From contig CAMDCJ010000001.1 of assembly GCA_945890035.1 (NCBI GenBank), forward strand, positions 1 through 58,020: 58,020 nt of DNA, read 5' to 3'. The number at the start of each line of letters is the position of its first letter. Position 1 is the first letter of the stretch. Positions 19,546-22,121 of the stretch are shown one piece after another. The DNA comes from Rickettsia typhi (GTDB lineage Bacteria; Pseudomonadota; Alphaproteobacteria; Rickettsiales; UBA1997). Below the pieces are notes generated by a model. The model was not told the DNA's origin and did no database searches. It saw only the letters and a list, made by a program, of their open reading frames with translations. A program made the position numbers and the translations under genes.

Positions 19546-19724
19546 TTTTTATATAAATCATTTAATCAATTTATGGCAGTTAAGAAAAAATTAACAAAAA
19601 AAATTGTGGCAAAAAAGTTGTAAAAAATAACTCTAAAATTGTTGCCAAAAAAACCAAAATTGTTGTCAAAAAACTTAAAGCGGTAAAAAATATTAAGAAA
19701 GCGGTTGCCAAAGTTGAAAAAAAA

Positions 19725-22121
19725 TTGCCCAAGCCATTAAAAAAAGTTGAAAAAAAGCTCGTTGCGATTGCAAAAAACATTAAAAAAGCTTCAAAAATTA
19801 TCAAAGCTTCACCAAAAAAAATCGAGAAAAAAATTGTTAAAACTGTAGAAAAAATTGGTAAAAAAACTAATGCCAAGGCTCCGATTAAAGCCAAAGTAAT
19901 TAAATCAGCGAAAGTTAATTCAAAGAAAGTTGAAATCGCAAAAAAATCTGCAAAAAATTTAGTAAAAAATGTTGCTAAAAATGTAAAAAAAACAGTCAAA
20001 AAAAATGTTAAAGAATTAAAAGTAAAAGTTGAAAAAGTTGTTAAAAAAGAAAAAAAACTAATCGAGAAAAAAATTAAGAAACCTAAGAAAGAGAAGATTT
20101 TGAAGGTTAAAACACCAAAAGTAAAAATCGCAAAGACCTCAACTAGATTAGGCGACAAAACTTCGCGTTTGGCAGAAAAATTTCAACTAATCCAAGATGT
20201 TCGAAGCGCTATTAATAAAGGTGATGATGAAACTAAAAGAATTTCTAGTGAAATAGCCAACAAACTTAAAAAACTTATTGCAATTGGAAAAACTCAAGGT
20301 TTTTTAACTCATGAGCAAATTAATGAAAATATTGAAACTGAACTCGACGGTAAAAAACTCGATAGAATTGTTGATATTCTAAGTGAATTCAAAATTCAAA
20401 TTGTTGAAAAAGAAGAAGATCTTGAGCGATTAATCGAAGAAGGTTTAGCTTCAAAAGATGATGAAAAAAGTCAAAAAAGAAGCGAAGATTCGGTAAAAAC
20501 TTATCTTAAATCGATGAGTACCGTAAAGCTTTTGACGCGTGACGATGAGGTTTCTATCGCCATGAGAATAGAAGATGGGCGCAGTAAAACCGTAAATTTT
20601 CTTTATCAAAGCCCACTAATAATGCGCCATTTTATTGAGTGGTATAATGGCTTATCAAACGGCACTATTTTGCTTCGCGATATTATTAGAATTGATGAAA
20701 CGTATAATTCTGAACTCGAAGAAATCATAAAAAATAATGATAAAGCGCCAGTTGTGGATAGTAATGTTGAAGATGTGGTTGCTATTATTGAAGAGCAAGC
20801 TGATTCCGCTGAAATTAACGAAGATTCCTTGTTTGAAGATGAGGAGCTTGAAGAAATTGATGAAAGCGCGGTTTCATTCGTTTCGATGGAAAGAATTTTG
20901 ATGCCAAAAATGCTCGAACTTTTCCAAAAAATTGCTACAATCTGTCAAAAAATCATTGATAAATCGGAAGATAAAACTCTTGAGCAAATCAAAAATGACA
21001 AAGATATTAATAAATTAAGATTAGATTTTGAAGCTCTTTCTAATGAAGTGAGTTTCAATGATGGTCTTATTAAGGCCTTGGTAGATCAGCTTTACGAGGC
21101 GCAACAAAAACTTTTATCAATCGAAATTGAGCTTTTAAAATATTCGCAAACATTTGGTATTGATAAAATTGATTTTCTAAAAAATTACGTTGGCATTGAA
21201 GATGGCGCCAAGTGGTTTAAAAAAGTTAAGGAAAATAAAGACAAAAAATGGCAAAAATTTACGCAAGAGGGCGAAAATCAAATTCTTACATCGCTCGAAA
21301 AAATTGCTAAATTTACTAAAATCATGAGCATTTCAATTGTTGATTTTAAAAAGATGATTAGCAATTTGCGCTACAGCCAAGAAGAAGAATTGAAGGCTAA
21401 AAAAGAAATGATCGAAGCTAATTTGCGTTTGGTGGTTTCCATCGCTAAAAAATATACTAATCGTGGATTACAATTTTTGGATTTAATTCAAGAAGGCAAT
21501 ATCGGCTTGATGCGCGCCGTTGATAAATTTGAATATCGTCGTGGCTATAAATTTTCAACATACGCGACTTGGTGGATTCGTCAAGCCATTACTCGCGCAA
21601 TTGCAGACCAATCACGCACGATTCGCATCCCAATTCACATGGTTGAAACTATTAACAAAATCGTCAAAACTTCGCGCCAATTAACGCAAGAACTCGGAAG
21701 AACGCCGGATGCCCAAGAAATAGCCGATCGTTTATTAATGCCCGTCGAAAAAGTTCGTAAAGTTTTAAGAACTTCGAAAGATCCGGTAAGTCTTGAATCG
21801 CCTATATCGGGAGATGATGAAGAAAGTGTTCTTGGTGATTTCATTGAAGATAAAACCGCAGTTTTGCCTTTCGATGCGGCTTCGCATTCAAAATTAAAAG
21901 AGCTTACGGCACAAATTCTTTCATCGCTTACTTCGCGCGAAGAAAGAGTGTTGCGTATGCGCTTCGGTATTGGCATGGTTACGGATCACACTTTGGAAGA
22001 AGTCGGGAAGCAATTCTCGGTTACTCGTGAGCGTATTCGTCAAATCGAAGCCAAAGCATTAAAAAAATTACAACACCCGAAGCGTGCTAAATTATTAAAA
22101 AGCTTCTTACAAGACGCTTAA
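19725..22121 (+). CDS. rpoD: RNA polymerase sigma-70 factor RpoD with a lysine-rich N-terminal extension (true start uncertain)
   Basis: Region 2 is [73 protein letters not shown]. Region 4.2 is [27 protein letters not shown]. The frame is open upstream to 19584. 19725 is a TTG, and no in-frame ATG exists before region 1.1. Confidence 0.9.

Follow-up and report, generated by a model that had tools for sequence, protein, structure and literature searches.

Does the 5' end of rpoD on this contig carry a recoding signal, or has an ordinary reading frame lost one base? The window, by which we mean the whole analysed stretch of 58,020 nt, has a G+C content of 32.6% and contains rpoD in the gene order dnaG, rpoD, recJ. 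The primase gene dnaG (17752-19545, forward strand) is a 597-aa ORF whose stop codon lies 28 nt before an ATG at 19573-19575, and recJ occupies 22139-23929. This ATG opens an ORF of 16 codons that is terminated by TAA at 19621-19623. Relative to this ATG, the bulk of RpoD is encoded in the -1 frame, which opens at 19584 directly after a TAA (19581-19583). The first ATG, GTG or TTG codon in it is the TTG at 19725-19727 (forward strand), from which the contig's gene call, an ORF of 798 aa, runs to 22121. In the ATG frame, positions 19611-19617 read AAAAAAG, phased as gcA AAA AAG, and a -1 slip on this heptamer joins the two frames. An earlier note, made from the sequence alone, had described this arrangement. 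Reading the sequence confirmed it, and on translation the joined product came to 849 aa in all.

The earlier note had also proposed, from a repeat present in both frames, that the short ORF and rpoD were or are one reading frame. Three imperfect 18-nt copies, starting at 19600, 19635 and 19656 (19600-19673, forward strand), encode KIVAKK, KIVAKK and KIVVKK, respectively, with the first copy read in the ATG frame and the other two in the rpoD frame. At the peptide level the repeat was as described, but the quoted DNA consensus is exact only at 19635 and 19656. The copy at 19600 (AAAATTGTGGCAAAAAAG) has GCA, not GCC, where the others carry GCC or GTC, and it is identical to the 19635 copy at 15 of 18 positions.

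The 849-aa frame-corrected protein contained all six expected Pfam domains above the cut-offs, spanning residues 230-835. Regions 1.1, 1.2, the non-conserved region and regions 2, 3 and 4 followed in this order, from region 1.1 at residue ~230 to region 4 ending at residue 835, which identifies the protein as a primary sigma factor RpoD (sigma-70 group 1). Ahead of region 1.1, the protein has a Lys-rich N-terminal extension of ~225 residues (window 19573-20250; also in the homologues P0001-P0052). Lysine makes up 38.5% of its first 195 residues, together with V, A and I. By composition this tail is histone-H1-like, and the clade that carries it is a freshwater Rickettsiales-like one; extra binding of DNA or the nucleoid by the housekeeping sigma factor is a candidate role for the extension. 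The first 15 residues of the tail are conserved, and the length of RpoD differs among strains from 846 to 868 aa. In-frame length polymorphism between strains was observed within the tail, at window position 19733 against L005 and L006 and at 19716-19760 against L003 and L004. The 24-nt indel at 19733 encodes PLKNKAKV and has CCATT(G/A)AAAA direct repeats at its flanks. Such a pattern fits replication slippage in this repetitive region.

We compared the locus with related rpoD genes, as the earlier note had suggested, and the proposal of a single reading frame was borne out, with relatives carrying exactly one more A and one continuous gene. The closest comparison was with L001, an independent ENA metagenome contig found by an exact look-up of the window's DnaG. 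The DnaG of L001 is identical to that of the window and contains the Pfam domains Zn_ribbon_DnaG, DNAG_N and Toprim; a single 849-aa rpoD begins 28 nt past its dnaG, the same spacing as in the window. Base by base over 4.6 kb (window 16668-21329), the sole difference was one extra A in L001, A7 versus A6, so that the near-identical sequences differ there only in the length of the run. Across the whole of rpoD, two substitutions and this extra A separate the L001 DNA from that of the window. The ends of L001 diverge from the window, with 88% identity upstream and clustered mismatches past 21329. L001 positions 1-1033 are 88% identical to the window and the remaining 5.9 kb ~99.8%, a pattern of identity that suggests strain chimerism or recombination.

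The other relatives agreed with L001 at the run. All eight related loci, L001 included, read GCA AAA AAA (G/A)TY in frame, as A7 (GTT) or A8 (ATC), and each has one uninterrupted rpoD frame from the same ATG. A single gap at the run was also seen in the alignments against L002-L006. The extra A was present in L005, a contig of an NCBI MAG, and in L006, both with 99%-identical RpoD, as well as in L007 ("Rickettsiales bacterium UBA1997") and L078, which represent two GTDB species and are 89% identical. The ATG and the 30 nt upstream of it are identical in L001-L006, and conservation of the first 15 rpoD codons between species extends to the DNA itself. A pattern scan of JGI metagenome contigs, in which the run could be any 5-9 bases, matched three contigs, all of them with A7; the A6 allele had no second occurrence in that scan. 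The scan of GTDB representatives gave zero matches, and an exact look-up found no other contig encoding the 798-aa product. The earlier note had held that seven A instead of six in high-quality reads would mean a plain assembly error. A7 or longer was found in every independent assembly examined, which speaks for other assemblies and not for this contig's own reads.

The protein comparison gave the same picture. RpoD homologues fell into ~35 clusters at 87-99% identity with lengths of 846-868 aa. Among the 16 homologues examined, 14 start with MAVKK[KI]LTKKIVAKK followed by V or I, and the other two are the most distant. The other nine RpoD proteins that cluster with the window's at 90% have 849-860 aa, and the window's alone has 798 aa. 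Two members of this cluster considered as candidate RpoD N-terminal fragments, P0124 and P0126, proved to be unrelated short peptides. Two shorter homologues (803 and 817 aa) were considered as parallel frameshifts and rejected, since L087 has a chimeric scaffold 5' end and L088 is truncated at a contig end; such artefacts therefore do occur in these data sets. In L087, ~110 nt of unrelated GC-rich sequence (positions 1-110) are fused into rpoD. The one-base deficit is unique to the window's contig, and adding one A to the window yields the relatives' sequence at the junction, an N-terminus that matches P0001 and P0002, and a conserved full-length protein of 849 aa, as long as the rpoD product called on L001. 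The true 5' end of rpoD is thus seen, from the sequence and the homologue N-termini, at 19573-19623 (forward strand), where the conserved ATG and codons 1-15 are followed by the TAA at 19621-19623, which is premature because one base is missing upstream. The alignments and the codons of the eight related loci place the deficit in the A6 run followed by G at 19611-19617 (forward strand), with an A8 run at 19596-19603 (forward strand) nearby in the same 5' ORF. The rest of the gene (19617-22121, forward strand), in the -1 frame, encodes the remaining Lys-rich tail and all sigma-70 regions, and the TTG at 19725 corresponds to codon 52 of the intact gene.

The heptamer itself could suggest that rpoD has evolved a dnaX-type programmed -1 ribosomal frameshift, or that transcriptional slippage is programmed here, to regulate sigma-70 synthesis or to give two products. 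It fits the slippery pattern X_XXY_YYZ in phase with the upstream frame, the 0-frame stop is 4 nt away, and a shift at this site gives the conserved protein. However, removal of any one A from gcA AAA AAA Gtt leaves gcA AAA AAG tt, that is, A_AAA_AAG in slippery phase, which a -1 slip repairs. The heptamer and its phase are thus a forced by-product of a one-A deletion and add no independent evidence for recoding. The motif is also common here: AAAAAAG occurs 44 times per strand in the window and 55 times in the gene sense strand, and six other in-phase, slippery copies lie in ordinary genes of the window. In E. coli dnaX, A_AAA_AAG has an SD-like element ahead of it and a stem-loop after it, and the shift there yields tau and gamma. 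The window site shares with dnaX the heptamer, the correct phase and the expected tandem tRNA-Lys slippage. A tRNA-Lys repertoire without tRNA-Lys-CUU, as in E. coli, makes AAG shift-prone; the only tRNA gene found in the window is tRNA-Phe. Typical stimulators are a stem-loop or pseudoknot 5-9 nt past the heptamer, an SD-like sequence ahead of it, or both. Unlike dnaX, the site has no stimulators: the sequence downstream of the heptamer (19618-19700) folds at only -2.8 kcal/mol (z = +1.13), with 176 of 200 shuffles folding as well or better, and the upstream sequence AAAAAAAATTGTGGC contains no AGGGAG-like SD element of the dnaX kind. Furthermore, the dnaX shift ends translation early and so makes a second product, whereas the rpoD shift here would be needed for the only product, the 0-frame product being merely a 16-residue peptide.

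Conservation argues against a programmed shift as well. The frame was unbroken in every relative (8 of 8 DNA loci, the 14 closer ones of the 16 homologues examined, and the nine other RpoD members of the 90% cluster), and the run of six A at the site, like the nearest run in the 5' ORF (A8), falls short of the ~9 or more A or T at which bacterial transcriptional slippage is efficient (PMC5009743, PMC5574713). We consider a programmed mechanism very improbable, and the deficit is not conserved and appears to belong to no recoding device. There is hardly any likelihood that the 16-codon ORF is a genuine leader peptide (uORF) controlling rpoD translation. It is a short ATG ORF directly upstream of rpoD, as such a peptide would be, but the same ATG and 15 codons form the RpoD N-terminus in all relatives, no separate uORF exists elsewhere, and this comparative evidence refutes the leader-peptide reading. 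Among the four possibilities raised in the earlier note, transcriptional slippage and programmed frameshifting as evolved features were accordingly not upheld, with the split unique to this contig, the stimulatory structure absent and the heptamer placement forced. A homopolymer error and a recent frameshift mutation with the TTG at 19725 as a fallback are both favoured by the comparative data.

We regard a homopolymer-length error in the sequencing or assembly of this MAG contig as the probable source of the missing A. On this explanation, rpoD is one 849-codon gene starting at ATG 19573, with its frame broken at codon 15/16 where the run at 19611-19616 has six A instead of the lineage's seven. 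The deficit would be a product of the data, absent from the cell, and the organism would have GCA AAA AAA GTT and make the 849-aa sigma factor by ordinary translation. The locus resembles the homopolymer miscalls of draft genomes and MAGs in its single-base A-run difference, in a split confined to one assembly, and in a corrected frame that gives a conserved protein. It resembles them also in its position, as homopolymers are nowhere denser on the contig: of the 298 runs of at least six A in ~49 kb of coding sequence, 24 fall within 628 nt here. It is unlike them in being an isolated event, as the rest of the contig is free of such discrepancies over ~50 kb. No other frame-breaking indel was found in the ~50 kb of the window compared with relatives, and against L089 the window showed one mismatch and no gaps over 22,352 nt. 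Nor were other split genes found in the window; the three overlapping ORF pairs considered as candidates (rpiB/trmB, atpH/atpA, and ubiE with its neighbour) are separate complete genes. An assembly with systematic homopolymer errors would look different, so that the accuracy of the contig elsewhere leaves room for a genuine variant. In addition, the divergent ends of L001 indicate that it is not the same genome, and A6 versus A7 could therefore be a true strain difference.

The alternative that the deletion is genuine, recent and strain-specific is less likely but a real possibility, and it would then be an ordinary tolerated frameshift mutation and not a designed mechanism. Sigma-70 would be made mainly from the TTG at 19725 or another downstream start, and 51 residues would be missing from the front of its Lys-rich tail of ~225 residues. 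Incidental slippage could supply a minor amount of full-length protein: the ribosome could slip by -1 on A_AAA_AAG, with a product equal to the wild type, or RNA polymerase could slip by +1 while transcribing the A6 run or the A8 run beside it. A slip of the latter kind at 19596-19603 (A8) would restore the frame with IVA changed to NCG. The high accuracy of the contig speaks for such a deletion, and so does the mixing of strains in the population, which the sequences make clearly visible. Both the frameshift site and the TTG fall within the low-complexity tail, well ahead of region 1.1 (residue ~230), and the tail is already length-variable through in-frame indels, such as the 24-nt one. Against a tolerated deletion, the conservation of the first 15 codons, which extends to DNA, argues that the N-terminus matters. 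The A6 allele is found in one assembly only, against at least eight DNA loci and all protein homologues examined. Neither the TTG at 19725 nor the native ATG is preceded by a recognisable Shine-Dalgarno sequence.

How much full-length protein slippage could supply was weighed from known systems. A_AAA_AAG is among the most shift-prone heptamers in E. coli (PMC4066793), and a C_AAA_AAA site in the over-expression vector pDEST17 rescued one-base deletions at 25-60% (PMC1851650). However, E. coli heptamers without stimulators, as here, exceed the background of about 0.055% only 2.1- to 10-fold (PMC4066793). Compensatory or "corrective" slippage at A- or T-run indels is a recognised class (PMC5009743), known from Buchnera and Blochmannia poly(A) tracts, Citrobacter rodentium tssM, Oenothera chloroplast atpB and the pDEST17 C_AAA_AAA site (PMC5009743, PMC4256274, PMC8254509, PMC1851650). 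If the A6 run is real, the locus would resemble these systems as a homopolymer indel in an important gene that is partly rescuable by slippage of RNA polymerase or the ribosome. It differs in run length: efficient transcriptional slippage in bacteria takes place on runs of ~9 A or T (PMC5009743), whereas the site has six A and its neighbour eight. Nothing indicates that the allele persists. As a run grows, transcriptional insertions become exponentially more frequent (PMC5574713, PMC5009743), and the rpoD run is too short for a rescue by transcriptional slippage as in the endosymbionts and C. rodentium tssM. Compared with these systems, the site behaves as an ordinary homopolymer indel and no more. 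It is improbable that a natural population of freshwater Rickettsiales-like cells truly carries A6 and makes full-length sigma-70 only through an unprogrammed -1 slip or RNA-polymerase slippage on A6 or A8. Were this the case, the slippage product would be identical to the wild type, and "corrective" frameshifting would be at work in a transcription gene that is essential.

Length variation and repeats were also observed away from rpoD. Compared with the window's pnp (37051-39402, reverse strand), the related MAG L092 has a 33-nt in-frame insertion at window position 37142; it is a direct duplication in the C-terminal tail of PNPase, which has 794 aa in L092 versus 783 aa in the window. Four ORF-free intergenic gaps of 0.5-1.1 kb (2183-3291, 23930-24806, 47094-47550 and 51365-52279) are filled with dispersed repeats of ~100-150 nt. 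Identity between the copies is 75-98%, both orientations are represented, and some copies stand in tandem, such as those at 2270-2365 and 2658-2753 with 98% identity. No Rfam match was obtained in these four gaps, and the repeats resemble MITE, REP or RPE-like elements.

The 798-aa gene model that starts at the TTG is almost certainly wrong for rpoD on this contig, and the gene should be annotated from the ATG at 19573 with its frame corrected or flagged. In an AT-rich genome, a perfect-looking slippery heptamer arises automatically when a Lys-Lys A7 run loses one base, and such heptamers are not to be taken as recoding signals unless they are conserved. If A6 proved to be real, the locus would be a modest case of an essential gene whose frameshift is tolerated or rescued by slippage.
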